Notes: generated by a model not told the origin, from the sequence alone. A stretch of DNA of 64,000 nt from Bacteroidales bacterium (GCA_041663505.1 JBAYMP010000001.1:30400-94399), one strand, 5' to 3'; shown: positions 9,408-64,000, numbered from the stretch's first letter. Numbers and translations are program-made.

Positions 9408-10187
9408 TTAGTCCTTAAGTTTTGCTTTTAAAAACTCTCTGTTCATACGGGCAATATGTGCAACTGAAATCCCTTTCGGACATTCCATTTCACAAGCTCG
9501 TGTGTTTGTGCAGGCGCCGAATCCCAGCTCATCCATCTTTGCTACCATTGCTTTTGCCCTTCTTGCTCCCTCAATCTTTCCTTGTGGCAACAAAGCAAGA
9601 GAACTTACTCTGGCAGAGACAAATAACATTGCTGAACCATTTTTACAAGCGGCTATACAGGCGCCACAACCCACACAAGCAGCTGCATCCATACTCTCTT
9701 CTGCAGTTTCTCTTTTGATTGGTATTGAGTTTGCGTCAGGAACTCCTCCTGTGTTGACAGATATGTATCCTCCCGCCTGTAGTATCTGATCCAGAGCATT
9801 TCTGTTGACAACCAAATCTTTTATAACAGGCATAGCCGCAGAGCGCCAAGGTTCAATAGTAATTGTGTCACCATCCTTGAACTTACGCATATGAAGCTGG
9901 CAAGTTGTTATATCATCGTCCGGTCCGTGAGCCCTGCCGTTGATATACAACGAACACATACCGCAAATACCTTCACGACAGTCATTATCAAACACAACAG
10001 GTCCATCATTTTTGCATCCCTTTTCGATTGCTACAGGATCGCTCCCTTCCCGAATAAGTTGATCATTAAGTATATCCATCATCTCAAGAAATGACGAGTC
10101 GGGAGAGATATTCTTAACCTTGTAGGTCTCGAAATGCCCCTTATCTTTTGCGCTTTTCTGGCGCCATATTTTTAATGTTAAATCCAT
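9408..10187 (-). CDS. sdhB: Succinate dehydrogenase/fumarate reductase iron-sulfur subunit
   Basis: Three Cys clusters: [21 protein letters not shown] and [12 protein letters not shown]. Confidence 0.9.
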
Positions 10188-12175: not shown

Positions 12176-12244
12176 CGCATTTCGGACAAGATAACCAATT
12201 ATATCTCAATTTTTGTACCTTTACCAAAAATAAGAATTGGTATT

Positions 12245-14446
12245 ATGAAAACAATAAAATTACTCTTAATATTTATCGCTTCCTTTTCTGTTTTAACTGG
12301 TTATTCTCAAACCACAATCATTCCAAAACCCAATAGAGCCGAGTTTGGAGAGGGTTACTTTCAGATGAATGAAAATTGTGTTATCTGCACAAACGAAAAG
12401 AGTTATTCCAATTTAAACTACCTTAAGAACAAGCTTGTCAAGGCTACAGGATTTCCTTTTAACGATACCAGAAAACTTCCCTCCGACAATTTTATCTCGT
12501 TGGATTTTTCTGCCGGTTACAACATTCCCAACGAAGGGTATCTTTTAAATATTTCAAAGTCAAGTATTATCATTAAGGCAAGTAGCTCTGCAGGAGTTTT
12601 TTACGGTATTCAGTCACTTTTGCAACTTCTGCCGCCCACAATCTACTCAGGAAGAACTACCGGTCACGAATTGTGGAGGATTCCGGTAGTATCTGTCGAA
12701 GATTCCCCCAGGTTCAGTTACCGGGGAATGATGCTCGATGTATCAAGAACTTTCTTCGATGTTCAAACCGTCAAGAAATATATAGACTGGATGTCGTATC
12801 ATAAAATTAACACTTTCCACTGGCATCTTACAGACGACAATGGTTGGCGCATTGAAATCAAAAAGTATCCCGAACTTACAAATAAAGGTGCATGGAGAGG
12901 GGAGAACGAAGTGCTCGCCGCCGCCTTTGGACAAGGGAACAAGAGATATGGAGGGTTTTATACACAGGATCAAATAAAAGAGATTGTAGTATATGCCGCG
13001 CAGAGACATATCGAGATAATTCCTGAAATAGATCTTCCCGGGCATAGTAAGTCAGTTACAGCCTCTTATCCTCGGGTCGCCTGTTCGGGCAGGGATAATA
13101 AACTGAGTGTACAAGGAGAGGAACAGAATGTATGGTGCGTAGGTAAAGAACAGAATTACAAGATGCTGGAAGAAATAATAAAAGAGTTGTCAAAGTTGTT
13201 TCCATCTAAATACATCCATATCGGAGGCGATGAGGTTAATTATTCTGCGTGGACCTCTTGTCCTGATTGTCAGGCCTTGATGGAGAGAGAGGGGATGAAG
13301 GAGCCGGTTGAACTTCTCAATTACTTTGCAAGGAGAATGGAGAGTATTGTTGAAAAACACGGAAAACATATGGCAGGATGGGAGGAGATAATGGATGGGA
13401 AAGATCTGAAAAGAGAGACAAGAGTATATGCCTGGAGGAGTGTGGAAAAGGGTGTGAAATCTGTAAAAAAGGGACAACCTACTGTAATGATGCCTAGTTC
13501 ATATTGCTATTTAGACATGAAACAATCGGAAAATGAGAGGGGACACAACTGGGCTGGAATAGTGCCTATCGAAAAGACTTACTCTCTTGACCCTGTTGGA
13601 ACTGCCCAATTAACTCAGGAAGAGTCCGGGCTGATTATTGGAGTTCAGGGGGCCCTTTGGGCAGAATTATTGGGAAGACCTCAAAGGTTTCTTGATTATC
13701 AGACATACCCAAGATTATGTGCTATTGCGGAGGTTGGCTGGACGCATCAGGAACTCAGAAGTTGGCTGGAATTTAACGACCGTCTTTCGAAGAATCATTT
13801 TGAAAGGATGTATCAGATGGGCATTGCTTTCCGTATTGCCCCCCCTATTGTTATATATGAGAACGGAGCTCTTAAAGCAGAAGCTCCATATCCTTGGCAG
13901 GTAATAAGATACACTATGGATGAGAGCAATCCGACACCATACTCTTCTATCTACAGAGGTGAGATTTTTACAGACAAGCCTGTTAAGTTTCGTTTTGCAA
14001 CATTTTACAGGGACGAACTCTCAAGCATTGCCGTTAAAGCATCAAATGTAGAATATGAGTATCAAAAACCCGAATTCGAAATAGAGACATCCATTGCTGT
14101 CAATAATAAAACTCCACTCGCCAATCTTTATGATTACAAACAGGATACCTATGTAAGAAGCAGCGAGAGACTCAAGGCCGGAGACTACTTTACATACAGG
14201 TTTAAAATGCCCGTTTCCTCAAAAAGGATAACTGTGGAGACCGGAATACCCAACATTAGTTTCTATCCGGTAACTGACGGGTATGTAGAATACTCATACA
14301 ACGGTACAGATTTTATTAAAGGAGACGAGTTTGTGAATGGTATAGCCGTAATTTATCCTAAAGAACCGGTAATGGCAGTCAGAATACAGGTTACAGCTCC
14401 GAATGATGGCTATACAGCCGCTTTCCAGGAGTTGGAAATTGATTAA
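12245..14446 (+). CDS. Secreted beta-N-acetylhexosaminidase (GH20) with a C-terminal extra domain
   Basis: Signal peptide MKTIKLLLIFIASFSVLTGYSQ, FHWHLTDDNGWR, and the catalytic HIGGDEV. The start was moved from 12077 to Met57, because the longer ORF overlaps the sdhA promoter and start. Confidence 0.85.
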   Translation: MKTIKLLLIFIASFSVLTGYSQTTIIPKPNRAEFGEGYFQMNENCVICTNEKSYSNLNYLKNKLVKATGFPFNDTRKLPSDNFISLDFSAGYNIPNEGYLLNISKSSIIIKASSSAGVFYGIQSLLQLLPPTIYSGRTTGHELWRIPVVSVEDSPRFSYRGMMLDVSRTFFDVQTVKKYIDWMSYHKINTFHWHLTDDNGWRIEIKKYPELTNKGAWRGENEVLAAAFGQGNKRYGGFYTQDQIKEIVVYAAQRHIEIIPEIDLPGHSKSVTASYPRVACSGRDNKLSVQGEEQNVWCVGKEQNYKMLEEIIKELSKLFPSKYIHIGGDEVNYSAWTSCPDCQALMEREGMKEPVELLNYFARRMESIVEKHGKHMAGWEEIMDGKDLKRETRVYAWRSVEKGVKSVKKGQPTVMMPSSYCYLDMKQSENERGHNWAGIVPIEKTYSLDPVGTAQLTQEESGLIIGVQGALWAELLGRPQRFLDYQTYPRLCAIAEVGWTHQELRSWLEFNDRLSKNHFERMYQMGIAFRIAPPIVIYENGALKAEAPYPWQVIRYTMDESNPTPYSSIYRGEIFTDKPVKFRFATFYRDELSSIAVKASNVEYEYQKPEFEIETSIAVNNKTPLANLYDYKQDTYVRSSERLKAGDYFTYRFKMPVSSKRITVETGIPNISFYPVTDGYVEYSYNGTDFIKGDEFVNGIAVIYPKEPVMAVRIQVTAPNDGYTAAFQELEID

Positions 14447-15672
14447 TTATTTACGGTAAGGGTTTTGTATGCACGAATTATTGCCTCAGAGGCCTGTCCG
14501 TTCAGTTCATTCAGCTCATCGAGATTAAGACCGTCTTTTCTCCATCTTTCAATAGGATCTTTGTAGAGCAGATAGACAAACTCTTCTGCGGGGCAAAGTT
14601 CCTGCATATAACCACTTCCCTTGCTATTATAGATAAGGTTGAAGTTCATATATTTGGGTCCGTTTCCACGTTTTAGCGAGAATGTTTTATACTTAAGTGC
14701 AAGGGCGTTATCGCAAGCTGTGGAATTTTGAGACTCACCGGAACGCATAACTACTGAGGGTTGCTGATCTCCGGCTTTTACCCAAAGCGGAATTGCCACA
14801 CCGGCAGGGGGATATCCCAAGACTGTCCACATAGTTGTCATCTCAACATTTTCTCCCGGCCTTACACCTTGAATTACGACTGAAGCTGTAGATGATTTTC
14901 TTGGAATAAAATCCTGATCAACAACCCAACCGTTGAACCTCTCAGGAGACTGGTCTGGTTTCAGAAGATTGAAACCCTGTAGCGAATGATAAAATGAGCG
15001 CGACAAGTTGTTAAAAATCCACTGCGGAGTGATATTCATAAAGGGAGTCTGTTTTGATAAAATTTCACTTGCAGTTTGATACCTGACATAACCCATACCT
15101 TCGTTAAACCGACCTGTATATGAATAATTTGTATAAATAAGATAACCCTCAGGTGCAATTTTTGGATCGTTGGCATCAACTTTTATAAACCCGGCATTAT
15201 TGGTCTCATAATAAGCGGCACCACCCTCTGCATCTATAACTCCGAAGTTTGCCTCCACACCCAAAGGTTTTTTATGTGAATTAAGAAAATTTTCAAAATC
15301 TGACAGATTTTTACAGACAGAGAGAGCTTCAAACATTATTTTTCCCTCCTGATCCATTTTTTCTTCTTTAACATCGTCATCTTTAATATTATATGAGGCT
15401 GTATTAATAATAGAGAAGCCTGCGCTGTTGGTACCCACCCATACTATGCCTGTACTGTCCGGGCTATCGACCAACGCAATAAAATTGTATCTATCACCCT
15501 CAAAAAACTGAATCCTGTTATTATCTTCTCCGGTATCCCTGTGTTTCCACAGTAACGGTCTGCCATCCGGAGTCAATTTACCTGTAATAATAGCAGATGT
15601 ACAGGAAAACAAATCATTACAGTTTAAAATGATAAGTAAAGTCGAAAAAATTGTTATAATAAATCGTTTCAT
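14443..15672 (-). CDS. Secreted Ntn-hydrolase-type cysteine hydrolase (peptidase C69/C45-like)
   Basis: A signal peptide is followed by ...[26 protein letters not shown]. This matches the N-terminal nucleophile Cys pattern of C69 dipeptidases and related Ntn hydrolases. Confidence 0.5.
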
Positions 15673-16685
15673 ATTAAAAGCTCTCCCATTGAATTTTTGT
15701 TTATACCCAAATGTTTGTATGCCAGATCAGTAACCTCTCTTCCCCTGGGAGTTCTGTGTATAAAACCCTCCTTTATAAGAAATGGTTCATAAACCTCTTC
15801 TATTGTTCCTATATCTTCACTTACTGCTGTTGCAATTGTACTCACTCCAACCGGTCCCCCTTTAAATTTATTAATTATTGTAGAGAGAATCTTATTATCC
15901 ATAAGATCTAAACCTCTCTTATCTATATTTAAGGCGTCCAAAGCATAATTTGTAATTTCAATATCTATTTTACCATTCCCTTTCACTTGGGCAAAATCTC
16001 TTACCCTTCTGAGCAGTGAGTTTGCAATTCTTGGTGTTCCCCTGCTCCTGCGTGCTATCTCCGTTGCTGCCTCTTTTTCAATTCCAATATTCAAAATTGC
16101 AGCACTTCTTGTTATAATTTTAAGAAGCACTTCGGCATCGTAGTACTCCAGATGTGATTGAATTCCAAACCTTGCCCGCAAAGGAGAGGTAAGTAACCCG
16201 CTTCTGGTAGTTGCTCCTATAAGAGTAAAAGGATTCAGGGAAATTTGTACAGATCTTGCACCCGGACCCTTATCAATCATAATATCAATAGAAAAATCCT
16301 CCATAGCCGAGTAAAGATACTCCTCGACAACCGGTGCCAGCCTGTGTATCTCATCTATAAACAAAACATCTCCCTTTTCAAGACCTGTAAGCAAACCTGC
16401 CAAATCACCAGGCTTATCGAGTACCGGACCGGATGTAATTTTCATACCTACTCCAAGTTCGTTGGCTACAATATGAGCCAGAGTAGTCTTACCAAGACCC
16501 GGAGGACCGTGAAGCAAAAGATGATCCAAAGCCTCGCCCCTCATTTTAGCAGCTTTTACAAAAATTTTAAGATTTCCAATTATCTTCTCCTGACCTGAAA
16601 ATTCCGCAAAATCCTGTGGTCTTATTTGTCCTTCAAAATCCCTATCTTTGCTTTCTTTCTCATTATGAGGGTCAAAACTTGCCAT
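15669..16685 (-). CDS. ruvB: Holliday junction branch migration DNA helicase RuvB
   Basis: Walker [10 protein letters not shown], Walker [10 protein letters not shown], and [16 protein letters not shown]. Confidence 0.95.
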
Positions 16686-16937
16686 TTTATAAACACTATT
16701 AATTATTACAAATATATATTATTCTTTTTATAAATCTTTTGTTTTTGATATATGCTTGTTTATATGTTCATAAATAAAGATATTAACTTAAAATGGCTTT
16801 TATAAACACCAATTAACATCGTTTTCAACAAGTATTAATTCATATAATTATTTACATATAAATATTATAAATAATTTTTACAGTAGTTGTCAACAGATAT
16901 TAATAACTTTTTGGCTTATTATTTTACAAATAAAAAG

Positions 16938-16946
16938 TGTGGATAA
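16938..16946 (-). promoter_or_regulatory. Perfect DnaA-box 9-mer (TTATCCACA on the minus strand)
   Basis: Plus strand reads TGTGGATAA. Confidence 0.35.
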
Positions 16947-17083
16947 TTTTTCGATAAAAAGATGAAAAACTACCCCTCTAAAATTTGCTTTTCAAAACGG
17001 AATAATTATATATAAAATATCCTTGATTTTTAAAAAATAGTTATTGAAACTTCTGCACATTTATCAAACGGAGTTATTAACAT

Positions 17084-17092
17084 ATATCCACA
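17084..17092 (+). promoter_or_regulatory. DnaA-box-like 9-mer ATATCCACA (8/9 match)
   Basis: Read directly from the sequence. It is in the opposite orientation to the box at 16938-16946. Confidence 0.3.
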
Positions 17093-17108
17093 CTTTATGT
17101 TAATAAAC

Positions 17109-17116
17109 TATCTTTG
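17109..17116 (+). promoter_or_regulatory. Bacteroides-type -7 box TATCTTTG upstream of mfd
   Basis: Matches TAnnTTTG, 12 nt upstream of the ATG at 17128. Confidence 0.45.
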
Positions 17117-17127
17117 CATTCTGATTT

Positions 17128-20100
17128 ATGAAAGATAATAACCCTGAGAGTTGTTTTGCAGAACAAGAGTCTAATAAAGAGCTGATCGAGTGGATCAAAA
17201 GCTCTTCTAAAGATCTTATGGTTCTGGATGGACTTTACTCTTCTGCAAAGGCGTTTGCTATGGCGTCGGCTATGCAGGAGGGGCTTCATCTTGTACTGTT
17301 GAATAATAAAGACGCCGCTGCTTACTGTGCCAATGACCTTAGCAGTTTGATTGACAAGGAGAGTGTATATTTTTTCCCAAGTTCAGTAAATTACAGCTTA
17401 AGGAACGGCGTAAAAGATTCATCACATCTGGTACAGAGGACAGCAGCAATAAAGGCGATAAACTCATACCTGAATGGAGAGGTAAAATCCGGCAGGGTGA
17501 TTCTGGTCGGTTATCCTCACTCTGTTTCTGAATTGTTTATCAATAAAAAAAAATTACAATCCGGCATTCTTAGTATTTCCAAGGGATACACACTGTCACA
17601 CGAATTTATTAAAGAGACCTTGATTGCATACTCTTTCGAAAAAGTAGATTTTGTTACTGAACCCGGGCAGTTCGCGCTAAGAGGAGGGCTTATAGATCTC
17701 TTCTCCTATTCCGACAACAGGCCTTACAGAATTGACTTCTTTGGAGATACCGTTGAGAGCATAAGAGCTTTTGATATTGAGAGCCAAAGATCTACAGAAG
17801 AGTTTGAAAGCATAGAAATATTTCCTAATATATATGAGGGAAATATAAAGGCAGAGCTTATAGATTATTTTACATTTACAAAAGGGAAATCCACGATTTG
17901 GGTTACTGACTACGACTATTTCACGCAACAGATTGCTCTTTTGAAAGAGCATCAGAGAGAGGAGGAGGAGCTGCTGGACAAGGAGGCTTTCATGAGTAAT
18001 ATTGAGAGACATAAAAGGATATTCTTCGGACCTCTGCAAAGGAGTCTGGTTGCCGGGAGAACTCTATCTTACCATACAACTCCCCAGCCATCGTTTAATA
18101 AAAATTTTGAATTGCTGGCCCGGGATATTGCAGATAGAACAGCACAAGGTTATGCGGTTTCGATTTTGAGTGACAACCCTAACCAAATCGAGAGACTTCG
18201 TCAGATTTTCTCTTCTATTGAAAAGTCGAATGTAACGTTTGATACTCAAAACTGGTCCCTTCACGAAGGATTTATAGATCATATATCTAAAATTTGCCTC
18301 TACACAGATCACCAGATTTTTGAAAGGTACCACAGGGTAAAAACTCAGCGATCTGTTGAGAAAAGTGAGAGACTCACCATTAACGAACTGAACTCTTATC
18401 AAATCGGGGATTATATTGTGCATATAGATCACGGTGTGGGGCAATTCGGAGGTCTTGTAAAGACCCAGATAAACGGAAAGCAACAAGAGGCGGTAAAACT
18501 GATATACAAAGACGGCGATGTAATTTTTGTATCGATACACGGACTGCACAGGATATCTAGATACAAGTCCAAAGACTCATTGCCGCCTAAAGTGTACAAG
18601 CTGGGGACAGGGGCCTGGCAAAAATTAAAAAGCCAGACAAAATCCAAAATTAAAGATATAGCAAAAGATCTGATAGACCTGTATTCAAAGAGAAGAGATG
18701 CAAAAGGATTTGCATTTTCAAACGACTCATACTTGCAAAATGAACTGGAAGCATCTTTTATTTATGAGGATACACCGGATCAGGTAAAAGCAACCAAAGC
18801 GGTAAAAGAGGATATGGAGCAATCGTTTCCAATGGACAGGCTTATTTGCGGAGATGTAGGCTTCGGTAAGACAGAGATAGCAATAAGGGCGGCTTTCAAA
18901 GCGGTAGCTGACAGCAAACAGGTTGCCTTGCTGGTGCCAACAACTATTCTGGCTTTACAACATTATAAAACCTTTGAAAGGCGGCTCAAGGACTTTCCGT
19001 GCAGAACAGAATATATCAGCAGATTGAGAGATTCCGGTGAAATCAGGGATATAACACAAGATTTGGAGAAGGGCAAAGTGGACATAATAATTGGCACCCA
19101 CAGACTTCTTAATAAAGAGATTAAATTTAAAGATCTGGGTCTGCTCATAATAGACGAAGAGCAAAAATTCGGAGTTGCCGCCAAAGAGCGACTTCGTCAA
19201 CTGAAGTTAGATGTAGATACCCTTACTCTTTCTGCAACGCCAATACCAAGAACACTCCAGTTTTCACTGTTAGGCGCCAGGGATTTGTCCATAATCAATA
19301 CCCCTCCACCAAACAGGCTTCCGGTTCAGACGGAAATAATTGACTTTAACGAAGAGTATATAAGGGATGCCATTAACTTTGAGGTAGAGAGAGGCGGACA
19401 AGTATTCTTCGTTCACAACAGGGTTGAGGATATCAGAGCTGTGGAAGATATTATACGCAGGCTGTGTCCCAATGTCAAAACCTGCATCGGTCACGGTCAG
19501 ATGGTGCCTGCAGCTCTGGAGAGGGTAGTGCTGGATTTTATGGCAGGAGATTATGATGTTCTTATTGCTACGACAATCGTGGAGAATGGCATCGATATTC
19601 CTAATGCCAACACGATAATCATCAACCAGGCCCAGAACTTTGGCCTCAGCGATCTTCATCAGCTCCGGGGCAGGGTAGGGCGGTCAAATAATAAGGCCTT
19701 CTGTTATCTTATTGTCCCTCCATTAATCTCAATTACAGATGATGCAAGAAGAAGATTAAAGGCGATTGAGGCTTTTTCTGATCTTGGGAGCGGATTCAAC
19801 ATAGCTATGCAGGATCTGGACATAAGAGGAGCAGGAAACCTCCTGGGAGGGGAGCAGAGTGGTTTTATTGCAGATATGGGTTTCGAAACCTATCAGAGAA
19901 TTCTTTCCGAGGCCTTTTCTGAATTGAGAGAGGAGAGAGGCTTGGAAGATATTGCGGAAAGAGGTGCAAAAGAGTATGAGTATATATCTGACTGTATTAT
20001 CGATACCGATCTGGAAATTCTGATTCCCGATGATTATATAGGAATTACGGCGGAGAAAATAAGGCTTTACAAAGAACTTGATGCTATTAATGAGGAGAAA

Positions 20101-54881: not shown

Positions 54882-55439
54882 CTATTTTCTCAAAGGTTTT
54901 AAAGCTATACCCCACGCTATTACCTGGTCTATTACTGTATTTAAGATTGCTTCATGGTGAGGAGCAGGTTTGAATACACTATAATTTTCAAAGTCGGTAA
55001 ATAGTGAAAGGGCAACCTGTGCACGAACATCAGCTACCTGAAGTTCTCCCATAATAAGACGTAATTGCTCAACGGCACGCACACCACCTGCTGAACCATA
55101 GCTAACAAAACCTGCTGCTTTATTATTCCATTCTACATAAAGATAATCAATTGCATTTTTGAGAGCTCCGGTAGCTGCATGATTATATTCCGGAGTTACA
55201 AAAATAAAGGCATCAAAAGATTTAATTTTTTCAGACCACAATTTTGTATGCGGGTGCATATATTGTTGCATTGATGCAGGCACAGGTTCGTCTAATAAGG
55301 GCAGATCATAGTCTTTAATGTCAACAAGTTCAAATTTTGCATCGCTTCGTTTTTGAGCGATTTCATTAACCCAGAAAGCAACGGCTTCACAGTTCCTTCC
55401 GGGTCTCGTACTTCCAATGATGATGGCAATCTTAATCAT
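54882..55439 (-). CDS. NADPH-dependent FMN reductase family protein
   Basis: IAIIIGSTRPGR and FVTPEYNHAATGALKNAIDY. Confidence 0.85.
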   Translation of the reverse strand: MIKIAIIIGSTRPGRNCEAVAFWVNEIAQKRSDAKFELVDIKDYDLPLLDEPVPASMQQYMHPHTKLWSEKIKSFDAFIFVTPEYNHAATGALKNAIDYLYVEWNNKAAGFVSYGSAGGVRAVEQLRLIMGELQVADVRAQVALSLFTDFENYSVFKPAPHHEAILNTVIDQVIAWGIALKPLRK

Positions 55440-55471
55440 AATAATATCTTTTTATTGTTTATGTTTTTTTC

Positions 55472-55517
55472 AATTTATTACCAGAGTGCTATGAGTTTTT
55501 AAAGTATTTCTGTATTG
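55472..55517 (-). repeat. Intergenic repeat copy 2 (plus strand AATTTATTACCAGAGTGCTATGAGTTTTTAAAGTATTTCTGTATTG)
   Basis: See copy 1. It fills the spacer between the NmrA-like gene stop and the FMN reductase start. Confidence 0.75.
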
Positions 55518-56174
55518 TTAATAAGCTGCTGTAAAACGCTGGCGGATGTGCTTTGGATTTTCTGCTTCATCCACAATAACCACAGCAAGGTCTTCTACGG
55601 AAAGGACGCTTCTATTATTGGCATCAAATACAGGGTTTTCCAAACCGGTTCTATATGTGCCTTTTCTTTCGCCTGATGAACCTTGGTGCATTTCGATTGC
55701 AGGGCTAAAAAAAGTCCAGTCCAGATCTTTCTCTTCTCTTAGTATATTCAAGTAATCCCGTGCTGCCGAAGCCCCTGGTTTTATCTCTTCCGGGAATTGC
55801 TGTGTGTCTATTAATTGAACACCTTCAGCAACATATAAGCTTCCTGCGCCGCCTATTACAATAAGACGTTTAACGCCCGATTTCTTTACGCCTGCCTGGA
55901 TAGCTTTTGAACCCTCCAAAAACTCATTGTACAGATTTGGATTGGCCCATCCTGCATTGTAAGCACTTACAACAACGTCATTATCTTTTACTGCTTCGGC
56001 CACGTCGTTTTCATTTAAAACATTGGCTTTAACAACAGTCACCTGCTCCGCCTGTTTTATTTTTTCAGGGTGGCGCACTATGGCGGTTACTTTATGCTTT
56101 CGTTGTAACAATTCATTTAGAATTGCTGTACCTACGAATCCTGATGCTCCTATTAATGCTACTTTCATTTTCAA
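55518..56174 (-). CDS. NAD(P)H-binding NmrA/YwnB-like atypical SDR (flavin reductase-like)
   Basis: VALIGASGFVGTAI Rossmann motif; about 215 aa. Confidence 0.8.
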   Translation of the reverse strand: MKMKVALIGASGFVGTAILNELLQRKHKVTAIVRHPEKIKQAEQVTVVKANVLNENDVAEAVKDNDVVVSAYNAGWANPNLYNEFLEGSKAIQAGVKKSGVKRLIVIGGAGSLYVAEGVQLIDTQQFPEEIKPGASAARDYLNILREEKDLDWTFFSPAIEMHQGSSGERKGTYRTGLENPVFDANNRSVLSVEDLAVVIVDEAENPKHIRQRFTAAY

Positions 56175-56185
56175 GTTTTATCCTA

Positions 56186-57172
56186 TTATTTGTTCACATA
56201 TGTCATATTTTGCCCGGAGTAACGAGTACCGGAGGCAGCACCGGCAGGTATCGCATTGTTAAGTTGCGTTATCTCTTCCCTGGTTAGGGTTATGTCCACT
56301 GCTTTGACATTCTCTTCAAGATATGTCCTGCGTTTTGTACCAGGTATAGGCACTACGTCTTCACCCTGAGCAAGTACCCATGCAAGAGCTATTTGAGCCA
56401 GAGTACAGCTTTTTACCTTTGATAGTTCATCCAGCTTGCTAAGGAGGTTCAAATTATTTTTGAAATTTTCTCCCTGGAAACGAGGAAGACCTTTACGGAA
56501 GTCCTCTTCTTTCATATCTTCATCTTTCCTGAATTTTCCGGTAAGGAAACCTCGTCCAAGAGGACTATAAGGAACAAACCCAATTTCCAGCTCACGACAA
56601 GTTGCGAGTATTTCCTTTTCTACGTCACGCGTCCATAAGGAATACTCTGTTTGCAGTGCTGTGATCTTATGAATTTTATCAGCACGTCGTATCGTATCAG
56701 CACTTGCTTCAGAAAGTCCGATATAGCGTACTTTGCCTTCTTTTACAAGTTTTGCCATTGCTTCGATAGTCTCTTCAATCGGAGTATCCGGGTCAACCCT
56801 ATGCTGGTAGTAAAGGTCTATTACATCTACATTAAGCCTTTTCAGACTGGCCTCGCAGGCAGAACGAACATATTCCGGTTTGCCATTCACTCCTAAAAAC
56901 TCCCCTTTAGAACCTCTCAAATTTCCGAATTTTGTTGCGAGAAATACCTTATTTCTTTTTCCTTTCAGAGCTTTGGCGACAAGCTCCTCATTTTTGCCAA
57001 CACCGTACATATCGGCAGTGTCAAGAAAATTGATGCCAAGCTCTATCGCACGATGGATAGTAGCAATAGATTCAATGTCATCGCCTTTCCCATAAAATTC
57101 TGACATACCCATGCAGCCCAGACCGATTGCGGATACTGTGGGGCCATTCTTACCTAAAGTTTTGTTTTTCAT
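56186..57172 (-). CDS. Aldo/keto reductase
   Basis: [33 protein letters not shown]. The ATGA start/stop overlap with the upstream gene suggests translational coupling. Confidence 0.85.
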
Positions 57173-58230
57173 ATTACAATCAATTTTACTTCTACATTGC
57201 CACGGGTGGCATTGGAATATGGACATACCTGGTGCGCTTTGTTTGCCAGTTCTTCGGCTACACTATGTTCAACGCCCGGTACTTTTATTTTCAGCGTTAT
57301 TTCTAAGCCATAGCCTCCTTTCTCATTTTTGCCCAGACTTACCTCTGCTGTTACAGACGTAGTGCCTGCTTTTATTTTTTCTGCCCTTATGATATTGAGC
57401 AGGGCGTTGTCAAAACAGGCAGCATATCCACCGGCAAACAGGATTTCAGGATTCAGGTAATCACCCTTCGGGCCGCCAAGCGATTGTGGTGCCCTTACCT
57501 GTATGTCGAGTACGCCGTTATCTGATTTTACATGTCCGTTACGTCCGCCTGTTGCGGTGGCTATTGCCGTATACATTTTTTCCATTCGAAGGTTATTTCC
57601 GAAAATTTCTTCCACACGGTTGCGTTTCTGATACATGTCCCAATAAAGAGCAGCAATTTGATCGGCAATATCCGGTGTAATCTGGCAGCAAACAGTTACA
57701 GTCCCGCTATAAATTCCTTTCTCCGCTAATTCTTCGTTCAATATATAAGTGTAATTGCGCAAAGCGGCAGCCATAAGACTTAAAGAACCAATCATTGGCA
57801 TAGGAGTGATAGACGACCTGCCGCCCGTCAGCAGAATCGCCCCATTTTTATTTTTAATCATATCCGGCAGTACTTGTTGAACGCTTGCTATCGCACCAAG
57901 AACTTGAAATTCGAATGTCCTTTTAGCAATAGCAGTCGTTACTTGCGACGGAGGTATAAATTCCATATTTATCGGGCTGTATTCCAGCACATCAACCGAT
58001 CCGTATTCGGTGCTTACCGACAAAAGGGCATTAATGATTGACTGTTCGTCCATAACATCTGCCACAAACCCTTTTGATTCAATTCCAAGTGATTTAAGAG
58101 AAGCAACCATTTTACCCAATGATTCTTTGCGTCGGGCTATCAACGCTACCCGGAAACCATTCCTGCCAAATGTTTTCGCAACAGAAAGGCCGAGTCCCGG
58201 ACCCGCACCAATAATAGCTATTGTTTTCAT
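57169..58230 (-). CDS. In-frame fusion of an SDR-like NAD(P)-binding domain (about 215 aa) and an Ohr/OsmC organic hydroperoxide resistance domain (about 139 aa)
   Basis: The N-terminus has [13 protein letters not shown]. The C-terminus from [17 protein letters not shown] has Ohr hallmarks: R (GGRNG), E (NPEILFA), Cys (YAACF) and Cys (HQVCPYS). There is no stop codon between the two parts. Confidence 0.75.
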
Positions 58231-58253
58231 ACGTAGATATTTTATAATTTTTA

Positions 58254-59267
58254 TTAATTTAAAATCCGGTCTTGCTGCATAGAATCAACCGCCCAACTGG
58301 GATATTCCGGTGTAAGTTTGCTTACTTCATTTAATTTTTTCAGCTCATCTTCCGTAAAATATATTTCGATTGATTTTAGATTGTCCTGCAATTGTTTTTC
58401 ATTTTTAACTCCGAGTATTACACTGGTAACTACCTTTTGATGCAGTAACCATGCTAAGGCAACCTGAGCAACTGAAGCATTATGCGCTTTACTTACTTCA
58501 TCCATTATGTCAATAATATCAAAAGTTTTTTCTTTGTTGATTGGGGGGAAATCAAATTCTTTTCTTCTTGATTCTTCTTCCGGTATTTGGTTTCTTCTGT
58601 ATTTACCGGATAAAAATCCACCGGCAAGCGGACTCCAAACCATCAAACCCAGATTTTGATCGTTAAGCAATGGAACAATTTCTCTTTCCAATTCCCTTCC
58701 GGCAATTGAATAATAAGCTTGCAAAGATTTGAATTTATTGAAACCATTTTTATCGGATATCCACAAACTCTTCATCAATTGCCAGGCTGTTAAATTGGAA
58801 CAACCGATATACCTGACCTTTCCGCTGTGAACTAAGTCATCCAAAGCGCGTAATGTCTCTTCAAGCGGGGTAAGTATATCGAAACCATGGATTTGATAGA
58901 GGTCAATATAATCTGTCCCAAGTCTTTTCAAACTCTCATTAACCTGATTCATAATATGCACGCGCGATAAACCTGTCTGGTTTACTCCTTCGCCCATTTT
59001 GCCCCTGACTTTTGTCGCTAAGATTATGTCTTTTCTTTTTGTGCCTAAAGACCTTCCCAGTATCTGCTCGGAAATTCCGGTCGAATAAATATTGGCGGTA
59101 TCAAAAAAATTGATTCCCGCATCGAGGGCTAAGCCAACCATCTGATCGGCTTCTTCTTGTTGAGTTTTACCAACCGGGGTCCACGTACCGGTACCGCCAA
59201 AAGTCATAGTGCCGAAACATAATTCTGACACTAATATTCCAGTGTCTCCTAAAATTCGATATTTCAT
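58254..59267 (-). CDS. Aldo/keto reductase
   Basis: MKYRILGDTGILVSELCFGTMTFGG, FFDTANIYS. The start was set at Met19 of the ORF. Confidence 0.85.
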   Translation of the reverse strand: MKYRILGDTGILVSELCFGTMTFGGTGTWTPVGKTQQEEADQMVGLALDAGINFFDTANIYSTGISEQILGRSLGTKRKDIILATKVRGKMGEGVNQTGLSRVHIMNQVNESLKRLGTDYIDLYQIHGFDILTPLEETLRALDDLVHSGKVRYIGCSNLTAWQLMKSLWISDKNGFNKFKSLQAYYSIAGRELEREIVPLLNDQNLGLMVWSPLAGGFLSGKYRRNQIPEEESRRKEFDFPPINKEKTFDIIDIMDEVSKAHNASVAQVALAWLLHQKVVTSVILGVKNEKQLQDNLKSIEIYFTEDELKKLNEVSKLTPEYPSWAVDSMQQDRILN

Positions 59268-59305
59268 ATTTAAAAAGTATTTGTGTGAATATACTGTTAT
59301 AATCG

Positions 59306-60085
59306 TTACATTGCTGTCCATCCTCCGTCGGCTGTGACAACAGCACCATTGACGAAACTTGAGTCACTTGAGGCAAGAAATAGGGCTACCTGAGCAATTT
59401 CTTCAGGTTCGGCAGTTCTTGGATTAGTTAATGCTTGTGCCGGAAGAATAACATTTTTGACTAAGTCTGATACATTGTCTGTCGTAAACCCACTTGTATG
59501 CGCAATATTGGTATTAACAGCACCCGGAGCTATAGCGTTGCAGCGGATGCCCCTCTTAGCATACATAAAACCGGTATTTTGAGTTAAACCTATCAATGCA
59601 TGTTTGCTTGCTGTATAAGCTGCACCCGCTACAGCCCCTGCAAAACCGGCTATTGATGCGTTATTGACAATTACTCCCCCTTTACCACTGTTTAACATGA
59701 TCTGAATAGCTTTACGTGTAGTTTTAAACGGGCCATTAATATTTATATTCATAGTACGCTCCCACATTTCAACAGACATTTCTCCTGCCCCATTAAAATC
59801 ATCCATTACACCAGCATTATTAACCAACACATCTACTGTTCCATATATATCAAGAGCCAACTTGAACATTTTTTCAATATCTTCTTCTTTTGCCACATTT
59901 GCCAAAACTGTTGTTATCTGGCCTCCTGCTTGTTTAATTTCTTTTTCCAGATTGTCTAAAGAGGATTGATTGATATCAGAACCAACCACTAAACTGCCAT
60001 GTTCGGCAAATAATATAGCAATTGCTTTCCCCATACCGGAACCTGCACCGGTAATAATAGAAACTTTATTTTCTAACTTTTTCAT
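59306..60085 (-). CDS. Classical short-chain dehydrogenase/reductase (FabG-like)
   Basis: TGAGSGMGKA, NNAG, and YTASKHAL (YxxxK). Confidence 0.9.
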   Translation of the reverse strand: MKKLENKVSIITGAGSGMGKAIAILFAEHGSLVVGSDINQSSLDNLEKEIKQAGGQITTVLANVAKEEDIEKMFKLALDIYGTVDVLVNNAGVMDDFNGAGEMSVEMWERTMNININGPFKTTRKAIQIMLNSGKGGVIVNNASIAGFAGAVAGAAYTASKHALIGLTQNTGFMYAKRGIRCNAIAPGAVNTNIAHTSGFTTDNVSDLVKNVILPAQALTNPRTAEPEEIAQVALFLASSDSSFVNGAVVTADGGWTAM

Positions 60086-60632
60086 TGCAATTCATAACCC
60101 ATTTTGCGAATGCATCCAGAAAAATCCGTAAAAATCCCGATGTTGACTCATTTACAAGATTTCCGCTGTCGTCAAACAAATTTGCTACACCTCCGATATA
60201 AACTTCGGGCTGTGGCATAACAGGAACATTTATAACCATAAGCGATTGTCTCAAGTGATGATTTGCACCGAATCCACCTAAAGCTCCTGGTGAAATACTT
60301 ACAATGGCGCCTGGTTTTCCATCCCATGAATTTTCACCATAAGGTCGGGATCCTACATCGATTGCATTTTTAAGTACCGCCGGAACTGAACGATTGTACT
60401 CAGGCGTAACGAAAAGAAGACCGTCAAAGTCCTTCAGTAGACTACGAAACCCCAACCATTCGGCAGGTGGTGTTTCTTCGAGATCCTGGTTGTACATCTG
60501 AAGTCCTCCTATCTCAACGATTTCAAGTGTAAGTGATTCGGGTGCAAGCATTATTAGTGCTTTTGCCATCTTTCGGCTAAATGATTCCTTTCTAAGGCTT
60601 CCTATAATAACTGCGATTTTTTTAGATTTCAT
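60066..60632 (-). CDS. NADPH-dependent FMN reductase (ChrR/YieF-like quinone reductase)
   Basis: IAVIIGSLRKESFSR and FVTPEYNRSVPAVLKNAID. Confidence 0.85.
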   Translation of the reverse strand: MKSKKIAVIIGSLRKESFSRKMAKALIMLAPESLTLEIVEIGGLQMYNQDLEETPPAEWLGFRSLLKDFDGLLFVTPEYNRSVPAVLKNAIDVGSRPYGENSWDGKPGAIVSISPGALGGFGANHHLRQSLMVINVPVMPQPEVYIGGVANLFDDSGNLVNESTSGFLRIFLDAFAKWVMNCNEKVRK

Positions 60633-60748: not shown

Positions 60749-60756
60749 TAATTTTG
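60749..60756 (+). promoter_or_regulatory. Bacteroides-type -7 box TAATTTTG upstream of the tetR gene
   Basis: Matches TAnnTTTG, 28 nt upstream of the ATG at 60784. It overlaps the palindrome at 60755-60778. Confidence 0.45.
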
Positions 60757-60778
60757 ACCTATAAACGATAAAAGTCAA
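60755..60778 (+). promoter_or_regulatory. Candidate TetR operator, copy A (TGACCTATAAACGATAAAAGTCAA)
   Basis: TGAC/GTCA arms are separated by 15 nt. It is 19/24 identical to 61366-61389. Confidence 0.5.
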
Positions 60779-60783
60779 TTATT

Positions 60784-61368
60784 ATGTCAGAAATAGAAGT
60801 TAAGAGCTTAATTGTTGAATCAGCAACAAGAACTTTTTCAAAATTCGGCTTCTATAAGACTACGATGAATGAGATTGCCAGGCATATCCATAAAGCTAAA
60901 GGAGTTCTTTATTATTATTATAAAAGCAAAGAGGACCTTTTTAACGAAGTACTGAAACAAGAATTGAATATTGTTAAAGTAGAGTTAAATAAAATAGTCG
61001 ATAATGAAGAAGATTCTCTTGTTATACTCAAAACATACATACTTTCACGCCTGAAATTACTAAGCAAGTCGATTAATTATCGCGAAACACTAAAAGCAGA
61101 TTTCTTTGAAAAATATATTTTTGTTAAAGGTGTCAAAGATGATTTTGACGTGTTTGAACGTGCCAAACTAACTTTAATTTTAGGAAAAGGCAAAAATCAA
61201 GGTTACCTCGATGTTCAAGACATTAATTCTGCAGTAAATATTTTAATGATGATAATGAACGGTATAGAAATACCTTTATTCTTACAAAATAAGTATTCTG
61301 AATATGAAAACACTATTGATGAATTATCCACAATGCTAGTGAAAAGTTTAAAGGTTCAAAAAAACTGA
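60784..61368 (+). CDS. TetR/AcrR-family transcriptional regulator
   Basis: N-terminal HTH FGFYKTTMNEIARHIHKAKGVLYYYYKSKEDLF; 194 aa. Confidence 0.85.
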   Translation: MSEIEVKSLIVESATRTFSKFGFYKTTMNEIARHIHKAKGVLYYYYKSKEDLFNEVLKQELNIVKVELNKIVDNEEDSLVILKTYILSRLKLLSKSINYRETLKADFFEKYIFVKGVKDDFDVFERAKLTLILGKGKNQGYLDVQDINSAVNILMMIMNGIEIPLFLQNKYSEYENTIDELSTMLVKSLKVQKN

Positions 61369-61389
61369 CTAAAAAACGATAATGGTCAA
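61366..61389 (+). promoter_or_regulatory. Candidate TetR operator, copy B (TGACTAAAAAACGATAATGGTCAA)
   Basis: It has the same architecture as copy A. It overlaps the tetR stop codon and lies 10 nt upstream of the -7 box at 61399. Confidence 0.5.
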
Positions 61390-61398
61390 AAATATTTT

Positions 61399-61406
61399 TA
61401 ACTTTG
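61399..61406 (+). promoter_or_regulatory. Bacteroides-type -7 box TAACTTTG upstream of the radical SAM gene
   Basis: Matches TAnnTTTG, 26 nt upstream of the ATG at 61432. Confidence 0.45.
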
Positions 61407-61431
61407 CACGAAACTTCACTATACTTTAGTC

Positions 61432-62862
61432 ATGAAATCATTAAATTCTAACTCAGCTATTTTGAGGGTAATTAATTTAACCCTAAAGAACAAGTTATCC
61501 AGAAATATATTACTGTCCAGTTTAGATAGAAATGTACGGGACAGAGTTCTCAGGGACATAAGCCCTCAGTCTCCTAAGAATGTGAGGATGTATCATTATT
61601 ATGGATTGCGTGCAATGTATATGTCCTTTTTTAAAAATTACGATAAGGGTTATATCTCTCCGGAGGTAGCTGGTAAAGTTATAAGAACACTTGTAGAGGA
61701 GGTATTTTTGGGCAAAAAAGAACAGAAGGAATCGAAAGAAAATTTTAAAAATAAATATGGACAAGACTCTACAACTTTCATAACAATTTCACCTACAAAA
61801 AAGTGTAATCTTAATTGTACAGGTTGTTATGCTTCGTCAAACGCAACCTGTACCGCTTCGTTGGATTGGACACTATTGGATAAAATAATTGAAGATTTAT
61901 ACAACAATATGGGTATGAGGTTTTTTGTCATATCTGGCGGAGAACCTTTGCTATATAAAAGTGAAAATAAAACAATACTGGATTTAGCCCATAAGTGGAA
62001 TGATTGTTTTTTTCTTGTGTACACTAATGGAACGTTAATCAATGATGATATAGCCTCACAAATGGCTTCTGCAGGTAATATCACACCTGCTATTTCTGTT
62101 GAGGGATTTGAAACGGAAACAGACAAACGGAGAGGAGAAGGGGTTTTTAGAAAAATAATAAATGCAAAAAACAGTCTCATAAAAAATGGTGTTCCCTTTG
62201 GTTTATCAGTTACAGCAACAAAAGAAAATATTGGACTAATGCTGGATGATAGTTTTTACGAATATTATTTTGACAATTTCGGAGCAACATATATGTGGGT
62301 TTTCCAATATATGCCCATTGGGAGAGAATTTTCAACAGACCTGATGATAACTCCTGTCCAAAGGGTTGAACTTTTTAAACAGGAAATGAAAATTTTAATT
62401 GATAAGAAACATTTTATTGCCGATTTCTGGAATAGTGCAATCCTATCCAATGGTTGCATATCTTGTGGAAAACCGCATGGCTATTTTTATATAAACTGGG
62501 ACGGCAACATAATGCCTTGCGTTTTTGTCCCGCACTATCTTGATAATGTGAAATCACTTTATTCTTCAGGAAAGAAACTTAGTGATGCACTCTTTTCCCC
62601 TCTCTTTGTTAAAGGCAGAGAATGGCAATCGGATTACTTAGGAAATAATGGAAAACCCGCAAATCTTTTAACTCCCTGTTTTTATCGGGATCATTATAAA
62701 AATTTTGCAGAAATAGCCAAAAGTACAGGTGCAAAACCAGAAAACCAGGCAGCAGAAGATGCTTTACAATCCACAGAATACTACGAAGCGATGCTATCGT
62801 TTGACGACCAGTTAAAAAAAATAGCTTCTCCTGTATGGGATGAGATATTAAAGACTAATTAA
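61432..62862 (+). CDS. Radical SAM enzyme with a SPASM/twitch-like C-terminal Cys-rich domain and an N-terminal extension of about 115 aa; substrate unknown
   Basis: CNLNCTGCY (CX3CX2C), ISGGEPLL, the C-terminal NGCISCGKPHGYFYINWDGNIMPCVF, and TPCFY. Confidence 0.85.
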   Translation: MKSLNSNSAILRVINLTLKNKLSRNILLSSLDRNVRDRVLRDISPQSPKNVRMYHYYGLRAMYMSFFKNYDKGYISPEVAGKVIRTLVEEVFLGKKEQKESKENFKNKYGQDSTTFITISPTKKCNLNCTGCYASSNATCTASLDWTLLDKIIEDLYNNMGMRFFVISGGEPLLYKSENKTILDLAHKWNDCFFLVYTNGTLINDDIASQMASAGNITPAISVEGFETETDKRRGEGVFRKIINAKNSLIKNGVPFGLSVTATKENIGLMLDDSFYEYYFDNFGATYMWVFQYMPIGREFSTDLMITPVQRVELFKQEMKILIDKKHFIADFWNSAILSNGCISCGKPHGYFYINWDGNIMPCVFVPHYLDNVKSLYSSGKKLSDALFSPLFVKGREWQSDYLGNNGKPANLLTPCFYRDHYKNFAEIAKSTGAKPENQAAEDALQSTEYYEAMLSFDDQLKKIASPVWDEILKTN

Positions 62863-62880
62863 TGTAAAAGAAAATACTAT

Positions 62881-63828
62881 ATGATTATAAATCTTGTAAC
62901 TGATTATGTGCCGGATATCATAGTACAAAACGAGTACTTTTTTAATAATTATGGTATTACAGAGGAGGAAATTATTGCTAAAAGCGGAATTAAGCAGAGA
63001 AGACGTAGCCGTCCGGCTGAGAACACCAATTCAATGGCGATTGAAGCGGTAAATAAAGCATTTATTGATTTACCATTTTCTATAGGCGAAATAGACTTAA
63101 TCATTGGAGCAACATATACACCCTATGATACTGTCGGCACATTGGCTCATGCTGTGCAGAAACAATTTAATATTAACAATGCAAAATGTTTCACTATTGA
63201 TTCTGCATGTTCTTCGTTTGTAAATGCAGTAGAAATTGTTGACTGTTATTTTGCCAATAACAAAGCGAGTAAAGCTTTAATCGTTATCTCGGAAAATAAC
63301 AGCGTTTACAGTGACGACTCTGATAAAAAATCAGGGTTTTTATGGGGGGATGGTGCTTCAGCCGTTTTTATTTCTAAGCAAAGATACTCAGATAAAGATT
63401 TTGAAGTGCTTGATGTTAATACTACCGGTTTGGGTAATATTGGGAAAAGCACGAGTGCAGTCACTTTGTTCCCTAACAATGGAGGGTTGAAAATGCCCCT
63501 GGGGAAAGATGTTTTTCAATATGCATGTAAGTACATAATACGTGAAATTGAACAAATTTTGAATAAAAACAACATTCCTCTTAATGAGTTGGGCTATTTT
63601 ATTCCTCATCAGGCTAATACCAGAATTACAGATTACGTTGTAAAGGCATTGAAAATTGATCCTGCACGAGTTATAACAAATATTGAGTATTTGGGTAATA
63701 CCGGTTCAGCAAGTACTCCAATTATTTTATCTCAAAACAGTAGGAAATTCAAGAAAAATGATACGATTGCAATATCGGTTTTTGGAGGAGGTTATTCAAG
63801 CGGGGCTATTTTGTTAAAAAAATTATAG
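62881..63828 (+). CDS. FabH-like beta-ketoacyl-ACP synthase III family condensing enzyme
   Basis: The Cys-His-Asn triad is present in context: DSACSSF, IPHQAN and LGNTGSAS. 315 aa. Confidence 0.85.
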   Translation: MIINLVTDYVPDIIVQNEYFFNNYGITEEEIIAKSGIKQRRRSRPAENTNSMAIEAVNKAFIDLPFSIGEIDLIIGATYTPYDTVGTLAHAVQKQFNINNAKCFTIDSACSSFVNAVEIVDCYFANNKASKALIVISENNSVYSDDSDKKSGFLWGDGASAVFISKQRYSDKDFEVLDVNTTGLGNIGKSTSAVTLFPNNGGLKMPLGKDVFQYACKYIIREIEQILNKNNIPLNELGYFIPHQANTRITDYVVKALKIDPARVITNIEYLGNTGSASTPIILSQNSRKFKKNDTIAISVFGGGYSSGAILLKKL

Positions 63829-63837
63829 GCATCTGTT

Positions 63838-64000
63838 TTGAAGACAATATCAGGATATATTCTTACAAAAGTGTTTGGGTGGAAAATCGGGGGAGAGTTT
63901 CACAATTTTCCAAAGAGTGTCATCATTTTCGCTCCTCATACCAGCTATTATGATGCATTGTACGGGAAGTTGTACCTTAATGAACTATGCATCAAGCATA
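63838..64000 (+). CDS. PlsC-type (lysophospholipid/1-acylglycerol-3-phosphate) acyltransferase, 5' fragment cut by the window edge
   Basis: The frame is open from TTG at 63838 to the window end: (M)KTISGYILTKVFGWKIGGEFHNFPKSVIIFAPHTSYYDALYG. It contains the HX4D motif HTSYYD. Absent from the ORF track because it is partial. Confidence 0.6.
   Translation, partial: MKTISGYILTKVFGWKIGGEFHNFPKSVIIFAPHTSYYDALYGKLYLNELCIKH

Follow-up and report, generated by a model that had tools for sequence, protein, structure and literature searches.

The window analysed here, a stretch of 64,000 nt from an uncultured, anaerobic Bacteroidales bacterium (GCA_041663505.1 JBAYMP010000001.1:30400-94399), runs at its 3' end into a gene for a TetR-family regulator, followed on the same strand by genes for an enzyme of the radical S-adenosylmethionine (SAM) superfamily, a FabH-like 3-oxoacyl-acyl carrier protein synthase III (KAS III) and a PlsC/LPLAT-type acyltransferase. 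The latter three genes are the head of a TetR-headed lipid operon of ~10 kb that includes a sphingolipid backbone set, and the radical SAM protein appears to belong to a sister clade of the enzymes of the Mss (membrane-spanning lipid synthase) type, an assignment that is well supported but indirect. Our best reading, for which we see the chances as roughly balanced, is that the enzyme joins the ends of two lipid tails by a carbon-carbon bond, as Mss does, and that the operon supplies and remodels the substrate lipid.

Relation of the radical SAM enzyme to Mss

The radical SAM enzyme (61432–62862, plus strand; 476 residues) matches PF04055 with 68.9 bits (cut-off 29.5) and Fer4_12 with 33 bits. 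The two motifs by which a sequence-only reading had recognised it, CNLNCTGCY and GGEPLL, are both present, and the Pfam and NCBIfam family agrees; no NCBIfam model reaches its cut-off for this protein. Aligned with 33 relatives, the cysteines of the CX3CX2C motif (C125, C129 and C132) and G169-G170-E171 are invariant. Beyond the radical SAM triad only C342, C363 and C416 are invariant, C345 being variable, and the SPASM domain (PF13186) scores 21.0 bits, under the Pfam cut-off of 21.5. With only three C-terminal cysteines invariant, a single auxiliary cluster, as in twitch-type enzymes, is likelier than the pair of 4Fe-4S clusters bound by true SPASM domains. Of the C-terminal auxiliary-cluster region proposed earlier, the cysteines for one cluster are therefore in place, while the full set of seven SPASM cysteines is not.

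The predicted structure (mean predicted local distance difference test score, pLDDT, of 90.9) sets an N-terminal helical domain apart from the SPASM/twitch-type core that it precedes. The sequence-only reading had called the first ~115 residues motif-less and had suggested predicting their structure; this corrects the description, since residues 1–110 form a separate, confidently predicted domain of five helices (block pLDDT ~75–95). A C-terminal helical region follows the auxiliary-cluster region. The closest folds found in a structure search are SPASM/twitch enzymes with template modelling (TM) scores of ~0.5, and sequence and fold searches of the PDB matched only generic SPASM/twitch maturases. 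Such matches could be taken to mean that the protein is a maturase of a cofactor or of a ribosomally synthesized and post-translationally modified peptide (RiPP) that merely lies beside lipid genes: its best NCBIfam and PDB matches are mycofactocin maturase, SkfB, SuiB, CteB and anSME, and in two relatives a conserved hydrophobic open reading frame (ORF) of 36 codons stands between the TetR and radical SAM genes. These matches, however, remain far under the family cut-offs (e.g. 68.7 vs 265 bits) and cover only the generic core. The all-helical N-terminus contains no RRE/PqqD-like domain, the window has no precursor-like ORF (the TetR–radical SAM spacer is 63 nt), and across many phyla the gene is found again and again among lipid genes. 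We consider a maturase very improbable.

Relatives at 40–70% identity number in the thousands and come nearly all from uncultured anaerobes. A full hidden Markov model (HMM) search over 1.84 billion representatives returned 701 clusters at E ≤ 1e-30, which fall into two tiers. The core tier, hereafter the window clade, aligns over the full length at 400–700 bits, whereas the second tier scores 250–350 bits and its alignment begins only at about residue 75–100. At least 586 species genomes carry the window clade, from anaerobic bacteria, candidate phyla radiation (CPR) bacteria and DPANN archaea. Among the bacterial carriers are Bacteroidales, Marinilabiliales, Planctomycetota, Aminicenantes, Latescibacterota, Omnitrophota, KSB1, WOR-3, Nitrospirota, Acidobacteriota, Spirochaetota and Chloroflexota; CPR carriers include Saccharibacteria and Parcubacteria, and archaeal ones Woesearchaeota, Pacearchaeota, Altiarchaeota and Methanosarcinales.

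It is the second tier that connects this clade to Mss. Within that tier, the Bacillota protein P0286 shares 37% identity with the window protein (E 1e-80) and has relatives in Moorella, Thermanaeromonas, Desulfofundulus, Thermosediminibacterales, Thermoanaerobacterales, Halothermothrix and Atribacterota, and a further cluster comes from Clostridium ihumii. The protein of Moorella humiferrea (P0460; 37% identity, E 5e-75), used as a proxy for the two tested Mss enzymes, gives a match to the window protein that by this proxy lies within the published thresholds for homology to the tested enzymes (E ≤ 1e-50, identity ≥30%). The tested enzymes, whose activity was demonstrated by anaerobic expression in E. 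coli, are Tmari_0825 of T. maritima and WP_129545148.1 of T. ethanolicus (Sahonero-Canavesi et al. 2022, PMC13159169). The Mss carriers named in PMC13159169 fit the second-tier taxa (the Moorella/Thermoanaerobacterales/Atribacterota group). The supplement of PMC13274423 names at least five of the nine second-tier taxa looked up (M. humiferrea, M. sulfitireducens, Thermanaeromonas, C. ihumii and Desulforudis), in a list that we take to be one of Mss-carrying Bacillota. Published ‘Mss homologues’ also span FCB, PVC, candidate phyla, Patescibacteria and Woesearchaeia, a spread that matches that of the window clade. In a joint alignment, the three radical SAM cysteines and C342, C363 and C416 are common to both clades, as are the motifs YTNGTLI, GN-PA-S-EG, RRG, PIGR and DFWN; the N-terminal domains cannot be aligned, and the window clade has two insertions. 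Taken together, this well supported but indirect evidence suggests that the window clade is the sister of the Mss-type enzymes. The module had been described as a candidate uncharacterised pathway; its radical SAM enzyme is no orphan and no generic SPASM enzyme, with known relatives in what appears to be the sister clade, that of the Mss-type tail-coupling enzymes.

A TetR-headed lipid operon and its putative operator

An exact-protein look-up led to a 45.5-kb ENA contig, from which 21.4 kb (L001) were taken; this sequence is identical to the window across all 12,569 overlapping nt. On L001 there are eleven genes on the same strand, ten of them after TetR, with gaps of -4 to 64 nt. The three genes seen in the window are only the operon's head, because L001 carries further lipid genes on the same strand: past the 184-residue acyltransferase, and separated by gaps of -4 to 28 nt, come genes for a patatin, a CDP-alcohol phosphatidyltransferase, GtrA, serine palmitoyltransferase (Spt), a KdsR-like short-chain dehydrogenase/reductase (SDR), a GNAT-like protein and glycerate kinase. 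Extending the contig downstream, as had been proposed, thus showed the operon to continue to a total of ~10 kb. The patatin-like lipase has its GTSMG and DGG motifs. The phosphatidyltransferase (CDP-OH_P_transf) retains an intact DG..AR..G..D..D signature, its best NCBIfam match being archaetidylinositol-phosphate synthase, and the GtrA-like protein was matched by domain search. Spt (L001 15027–16214) is of the CFB type and scores 692.7 bits against the NF047600 cut-off of 640. The KdsR-like SDR reaches 324 bits with the KdsR model, below the cut-off of 400, and the 374-residue GNAT-like protein gave weak GNAT matches in the domain search and, as a profile, only weak GNAT matches in the PDB. 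No gene for an acyl carrier protein (ACP) was found in the window, as the sequence-only reading had noted for its visible part, or in the next 10 kb. Trailing the operon on the same strand with tiny gaps (L001 19334–20514, 7.3–8.5 kb past the window end) are genes for a DUF6249 membrane protein, an extracytoplasmic function (ECF)-type sigma factor and a putative anti-sigma factor with DUF5056.

Within the window, the earlier account of a TetR gene and three same-strand genes with spacers of 18 and 9 nt agrees with the ORF positions: the ORF list and the raw sequence give 63 nt between the TetR and radical SAM genes, 18 nt from there to the FabH-like gene and 9 nt from the latter to the acyltransferase. 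The drop in GC content that had been pointed out is real, though smaller than stated, at 33.6% for 60784–64000 against 40.7% for the rest of the window. Divergent from the TetR gene, and starting 151 nt from it, is a run of eight redox genes on the minus strand (54882–60632), encoding two FMN reductase/flavodoxin-like proteins, three aldo-keto reductases, two SDRs (one an OsmC fusion) and one NmrA-like protein; two further aldo-keto reductases lie farther upstream on L001.

The FabH-like KAS III (62881–63828, plus strand; 315 residues) matches ACP_syn_III_C (PF08541) with 84 bits and ACP_syn_III (PF08545) with 52 bits, and the intact Cys/His/Asn triad ascribed to it was found in DSACSS, PHQAN and GNTGSAS. 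It falls below the NCBIfam cut-offs (NF006829, 222.4 vs 249 bits; TIGR00747, 185 vs 292.1), a score to be expected of a dedicated paralogue, and we read it as a divergent paralogue. A housekeeping role for the FabH/PlsC pair was rejected, the FabH-like protein scoring under both of these cut-offs. The window holds the first 54 codons of the acyltransferase (63838–64000, plus strand), from a TTG start and with HTSYYD as its HX4D motif. The identification offered from this fragment is borne out by the full 184-residue gene (L001 12407–12961), which matches PF01553 with 33 bits (cut-off 23) and has the PEGG and VPIIV blocks; its homologues adjoin the radical SAM gene in Bacteroidales and in one metagenome-assembled genome (MAG) of Bacillota.

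A condensing enzyme next to an acyltransferase might also be the remnant of a degenerate flexirubin, aryl-polyene or Ole-type cluster, and loci related to ours do share a PlsC-type acyltransferase, a GT2 glycosyltransferase, LolA-like proteins, an MMPL exporter and a 4HBT thioesterase with such clusters. We find this scarcely credible. The DarB models give 35–50 bits against cut-offs of 450–550, the best solved relatives of the FabH-like protein are true FabHs (138 bits, vs ~54 bits for OleA structures), and L001 has no ketosynthase/chain-length factor (KS/CLF) pair, dehydratase, DarA or OleBCD. The sequence-only reading could match the gene order to no flexirubin, aryl-polyene, Ole or glycine-lipid pathway, and the locus is indeed none of these.

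The TetR-family regulator (60784–61368, plus strand; 194 residues) matches PF00440 (TetR_N) with 52 bits; a search among its solved relatives found none that was informative. Its gene is bracketed by two operator-like sites on the plus strand. The first, O1 (TGACCTATAAACGATAAAAGTCA-A, 60755–60778), ends 5 nt before the TetR start codon, while the second, O2 (TGACTAAAAAACGATAATGGTCA-A, 61366–61389), overlaps the TetR stop codon and lies 43 nt before the radical SAM start. The 64-kb window has exactly two copies of the 23-bp motif, with none expected from 100 shuffles. When a relaxed 23-bp pattern (YGACY-N3-AWAC-N5-W-N-GTCR), with an inverted repeat (TGAC...GTCA) at its ends, was searched in 1.2 Mb of related loci, all 17 matches flanked the cluster's TetR gene (0–1 in shuffles). 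They are carried by Bacteroidales (L001/L002, L037, L087 and L089) and by Aminicenantes (L024 and L034), and in L087, L089, L024 and L034 a site occupies the position equivalent to O2. A scan for inverted repeats across the regulatory region gave none, and promoter and terminator scans were uninformative. Most simply, the motif is a putative TetR operator that has been carried along with the gene pair across phyla. A TetR gene immediately precedes the radical SAM gene, in the same orientation, in 18 of the 80 related loci; these come from Bacteroidota, Aminicenantes, KSB1, Spirochaetota, Bacillota, Saccharibacteria, Thermodesulfobacteriota and others.

Several further features of the regulatory region differ among the relatives. 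O1 sits in the intergenic region common to TetR and the divergent redox genes, which are not kept beside TetR in relatives. In L087 and L089 the conserved 36-codon hydrophobic ORF (MKLLLFIYKYKIIIIIGGVIVKLLSLVAVILWARFQQ, 9760–9880) occupies a 343-nt TetR–radical SAM spacer and is followed by a third operator copy; it is missing from the window with its 63-nt spacer. The TetR of L037, from a Bacteroidales MAG, shares 70% identity with that of the window. Its gene has operator sites at both ends and heads an operon (12192–18894, minus strand) of MMPL, LolA-like, patatin, membrane protein and LolA-like genes; a radical SAM gene of the window type lies ~700 nt away on the opposite strand. Because so similar a TetR and its operator sites head this operon, the same regulator seems to control lipid export genes in L037.

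Gene neighbourhoods across phyla

For a wider view of the neighbourhoods, ORFs were clustered from the 80 loci, all of named genomes, of which 74 have at least 3 kb of flank. Lipid-type neighbours, TetR and CdsA/PgpA/UppS counted among them, occur within 5 kb in 41 of these 74. TetR is the commonest neighbour (18 loci directly upstream); next come patatins and UbiB/ABC1-like kinases (10 loci each), followed by LolA-like proteins (8), MMPL exporters, FabH, GNAT-like proteins and SDRs (6 each), small acyltransferases and phasin-like proteins (5 each) and Spt (3: the window operon, L038 and L050). In planctomycete loci UppS, CdsA and PgpA adjoin the radical SAM gene. The DPANN and CPR genomes carry the gene alone or with a regulator, and these stand-alone copies fit an enzyme acting on finished membrane lipids. 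Downstream of the radical SAM gene, Aminicenantes and KSB1 loci encode small phasin-like coiled-coil proteins.

The neighbourhoods also join the two clades. The Mss-type gene of Moorella humiferrea (L083 7435–10129) is followed by genes for a 231-residue protein, a UbiB-like kinase and a ferredoxin, and this kinase shares 38–40% identity with its UbiB-like counterparts beside window-clade genes. In Halothermothrix orenii (L085 7664–10866) the Mss-type gene precedes two HGD-D genes and a BcrAD activator; HGD-D and BcrAD are domains found in the PlsA/Ger enzymes of ether-lipid synthesis.

The order radical SAM–FabH–acyltransferase, which the sequence-only reading had proposed to trace across Bacteroidota, does recur, though only in a few close Bacteroidales: it is found in the window and L004, L003 ends after FabH, and L007 has all three genes in another order. 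FabH co-clusters with the radical SAM gene in L003, L004, L007, L079 and L087. The closest relatives of the window enzyme (L087, L088 and L089; 66–69% identity) have accessory sets of their own. L087 reads TetR–radical SAM–ACP–cis-prenyltransferase–FabH–methyltransferase–acyltransferase–patatin–GT2, L089 reads TetR–radical SAM–ACP, where the locus ends, and L088 reads radical SAM–acyltransferase–ACP–GT2, with GNAT-like, patatin, LpxL-like and SDR genes upstream. In L063, a Bacillota MAG, three paralogous small acyltransferases of 196–214 residues surround the TetR–radical SAM pair (7343–8641, 13194–13838); a 394-residue ORF just downstream encodes a putative glycosyltransferase. Because accessory sets differ among the close relatives and the Bacillota MAG, TetR and the radical SAM gene, with the operator, are the conserved core, to which FabH, ACP, acyltransferase and patatin are recurrent but variable accessories; the Spt link is rare.

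The ACP genes bear on the route first proposed for this locus, in which the radical SAM enzyme would modify a FabH-primed chain during its assembly on ACP or CoA and the acyltransferase would then install it on a lipid acceptor. An ACP is encoded in the clusters of all three closest relatives: in L087 and L089 it comes straight after the radical SAM gene, and in L088 the small acyltransferase alone stands between the two. FabH and the small acyltransferase are recurrent members of such clusters, and L087 has in addition a methyltransferase and a 4HBT thioesterase, enzymes characteristic of dedicated acyl-chain pathways. In most of the family's loci, on the other hand, no FabH, ACP or acyltransferase lies near the gene, the window operon is itself without ACP, and the stand-alone CPR and DPANN copies point to action on finished lipids. 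We think this route unlikely: the idea of an acyl-chain tailoring module under a TetR regulator stands, while its build-then-install order is possible but not the best-supported reading.

Adjacency to Spt raises a different alternative. In L038 and L050 the radical SAM gene has Spt immediately downstream, and a PhaR-like regulator (L038 7510–8124, L050 1264–1836), composed of a PHB_acc_N DNA-binding domain and a phasin domain, stands in for TetR. Counting the window, the radical SAM gene is beside Spt in three unrelated lineages, and GNAT-like and SDR genes co-cluster with it in several Bacteroidales, as would also be expected if the enzyme performed another radical reaction on fatty-acyl or sphingoid tails (O2-independent desaturation, mid-chain cross-linking, cyclisation or hydroxylation) and did no tail-to-tail coupling. 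Anaerobes are not known to possess the desaturases and hydroxylases that act on sphingolipids with O2. The window protein shares only 32–37% identity with the Mss-type clade, the clade-specific N-terminal domain probably binds the substrate, and a B12-radical SAM protein 31% identical to a lipid methylase turned out to be a desaturase. Against this, the catalytic-core motifs and the three auxiliary-cluster cysteines are all common to the Mss-type clade, as is the UbiB-like neighbour, and the gene occurs in CPR and DPANN genomes, which are not expected to make sphingolipids. A different reaction is to us a possible but somewhat unlikely outcome.

Proposed pathway and comparison with known systems

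The gene content, the family relationships, the conserved operator and the conserved lipid neighbourhoods are shown by the analysis above; for tail coupling as in Mss, our preferred reading, we infer the reaction, the substrate and the parts played by the accessory enzymes as follows. TetR would bind the two 23-bp operators that bracket its own gene and probably let go of them once a lipid or acyl ligand accumulates. The radical SAM enzyme, its N-terminal helical domain holding a lipid tail, would use 5'-deoxyadenosyl radical chemistry to abstract a hydrogen atom from an unactivated carbon close to that tail's methyl terminus, and the activated carbon would couple to a second tail to give a long alpha,omega-bifunctional (diabolic-acid-like) chain. 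The FabH-like KAS III may prime or supply particular tails, probably iso-branched ones, such chains being usual in Bacteroidota. The small PlsC-type acyltransferase and the patatin could swap tails on a lyso-lipid. The head group could be supplied or flipped by the CDP-alcohol phosphatidyltransferase and GtrA, and Spt, the KdsR-like reductase and the GNAT-like enzyme could provide a sphingoid or ceramide backbone.

Several observations weigh against this proposal. First, the link to Mss runs through the taxonomy and shared neighbours of the sister clade, not through direct alignment with Tmari_0825 or WP_129545148.1. Second, at 32–37% identity, with the N-terminal 80–110 residues unaligned, activities may diverge, as the methylase and desaturase mentioned above do at ~31%. 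Third, the archaeal tail-coupling enzyme GDGT-MAS/Tes is a weak sequence match (E 1.3e-4) and falls outside the top 50 structural matches. Fourth, a Ger/PlsA-type ether-lipid gene (HGD-D, BcrAD) is absent from the window and the 21.4 kb of L001, and Spt adjacency is seen in three loci only. Fifth, because ACP is encoded directly after the radical SAM gene in close relatives (L087 and L089), the substrate could be ACP-bound and not a membrane lipid. Lastly, we know of no membrane-spanning lipid reported from Bacteroidales, and none was apparent in the literature found, as judged by titles and abstracts.

Surveys in print already list Mss homologues from Bacteroidota, candidate phyla, Patescibacteria and Woesearchaeia, so the family as such is not unknown. 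A literature search, made partly on titles and abstracts, found no description of a distinct clade with its own N-terminal domain, of the TetR/operator unit, of the patatin/UbiB/LolA-MMPL/acyltransferase partner set or of an operon that joins the radical SAM gene to FabH and sphingolipid genes. A search for radical SAM with serine palmitoyltransferase in Bacteroidetes yielded no paper, and titles and abstracts held nothing relevant on Mss-type enzymes linked to sphingolipids or to TetR, patatin or UbiB neighbours. The published surveys, which include Planctomycetota, count ‘Mss homologues’, yet the tested enzymes are those of Thermotoga and Thermoanaerobacter only. Many of the published matches probably belong to the distinct clade described here, with its own substrate-side domain, a conserved repressor/operator switch, recurring partners in lipid remodelling and export and, in this operon, a sphingolipid link. 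We therefore caution against taking every Mss-like match as a diabolic-acid synthase. Membrane-spanning branched lipids are the source of the branched glycerol dialkyl glycerol tetraether (brGDGT) proxies of palaeoclimate, so the matter bears on which anaerobes and which enzymes make them; two cultured carriers (Roseimarinus sediminis DSM 28824 and Rectinema subterraneum SURF-ANA1) and one operon are provided as testable candidates.

A bolder extension, which we regard as a long shot, is that the clade has been recruited into sphingolipid synthesis, here and in some Latescibacterota-type bacteria, to make membrane-spanning ‘bola’ ceramides or mixed sphingo/glycero lipids, and that it is the main brGDGT-type tail-coupler of anoxic habitats. 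If true, these lipids would form a class never described, and the window clade, not the Mss of Firmicutes and Thermotogae, would be the main tail-coupler behind the branched tetraether-type lipids of sediments, digesters and CPR/DPANN symbionts.

Among known systems the closest is Mss itself, likewise a radical SAM enzyme of ~460–480 residues from anaerobes. Both clades have a UbiB-like kinase neighbour, three plus three cysteines, the core motifs and an odd taxonomic spread that takes in Patescibacteria and Woesearchaeia. The window clade is nonetheless separate (400–700 bits within, 250–350 across), with an N-terminal domain of ~110 residues and two insertions of its own. Mss is described as restricted to anaerobes and as often co-occurring with Ger/PlsA ether-lipid genes; the window gene, known from sequence alone, is tied to the TetR/operator unit and, in this operon, to FabH, acyltransferase, patatin and sphingolipid genes.

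The archaeal tetraether synthase Tes (GDGT-MAS; PDB 7TOL) is also a radical SAM enzyme that couples two lipid tails. Tes reportedly has three 4Fe-4S clusters and a rubredoxin-like iron, whereas the window clade conserves cysteines for just one auxiliary cluster. Its match to the window protein is confined to the core (residues 115–229), and identity with Tes was rejected on that weak match and on its absence from the top 50 structural matches. Models of Mss have been reported to share the Tes catalytic architecture (PMC13274423). In the GMGT synthase Gms, as in the window protein, a SPASM/twitch core is preceded by an N-terminal extension of ~100 residues, which in Gms is predicted to form a hydrophobic lipid pocket (PMC11214058). 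The N-terminal domains are unrelated as far as compared, and Gms is close to AhbD (36% identity, E 7e-79), while the window protein scores 63 bits with the AhbD model against a cut-off of 500; identity with Gms was rejected on this score.

The likeness to the aryl-polyene/flexirubin export module lies in the related loci with a PlsC-type acyltransferase, GT2, two LolA-like proteins and an MMPL exporter; enzymes that build polyenes or resorcinols are missing, and the exporter genes are absent from the window operon. With the bacterial sphingolipid pathway (Spt, KdsR/CerR and bCerS) the operon shares an Spt above its cut-off, an SDR resembling KdsR and a protein with the GNAT fold, its length that expected of an N-acyltransferase, although the SDR is under the KdsR cut-off (324 vs 400) and the GNAT-like protein could not be tied to bCerS. 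In Bacteroidota such genes are reported to be unclustered as a rule (PMC11334938); the present operon unites them with genes for radical SAM, FabH, acyltransferase, patatin and head-group enzymes.

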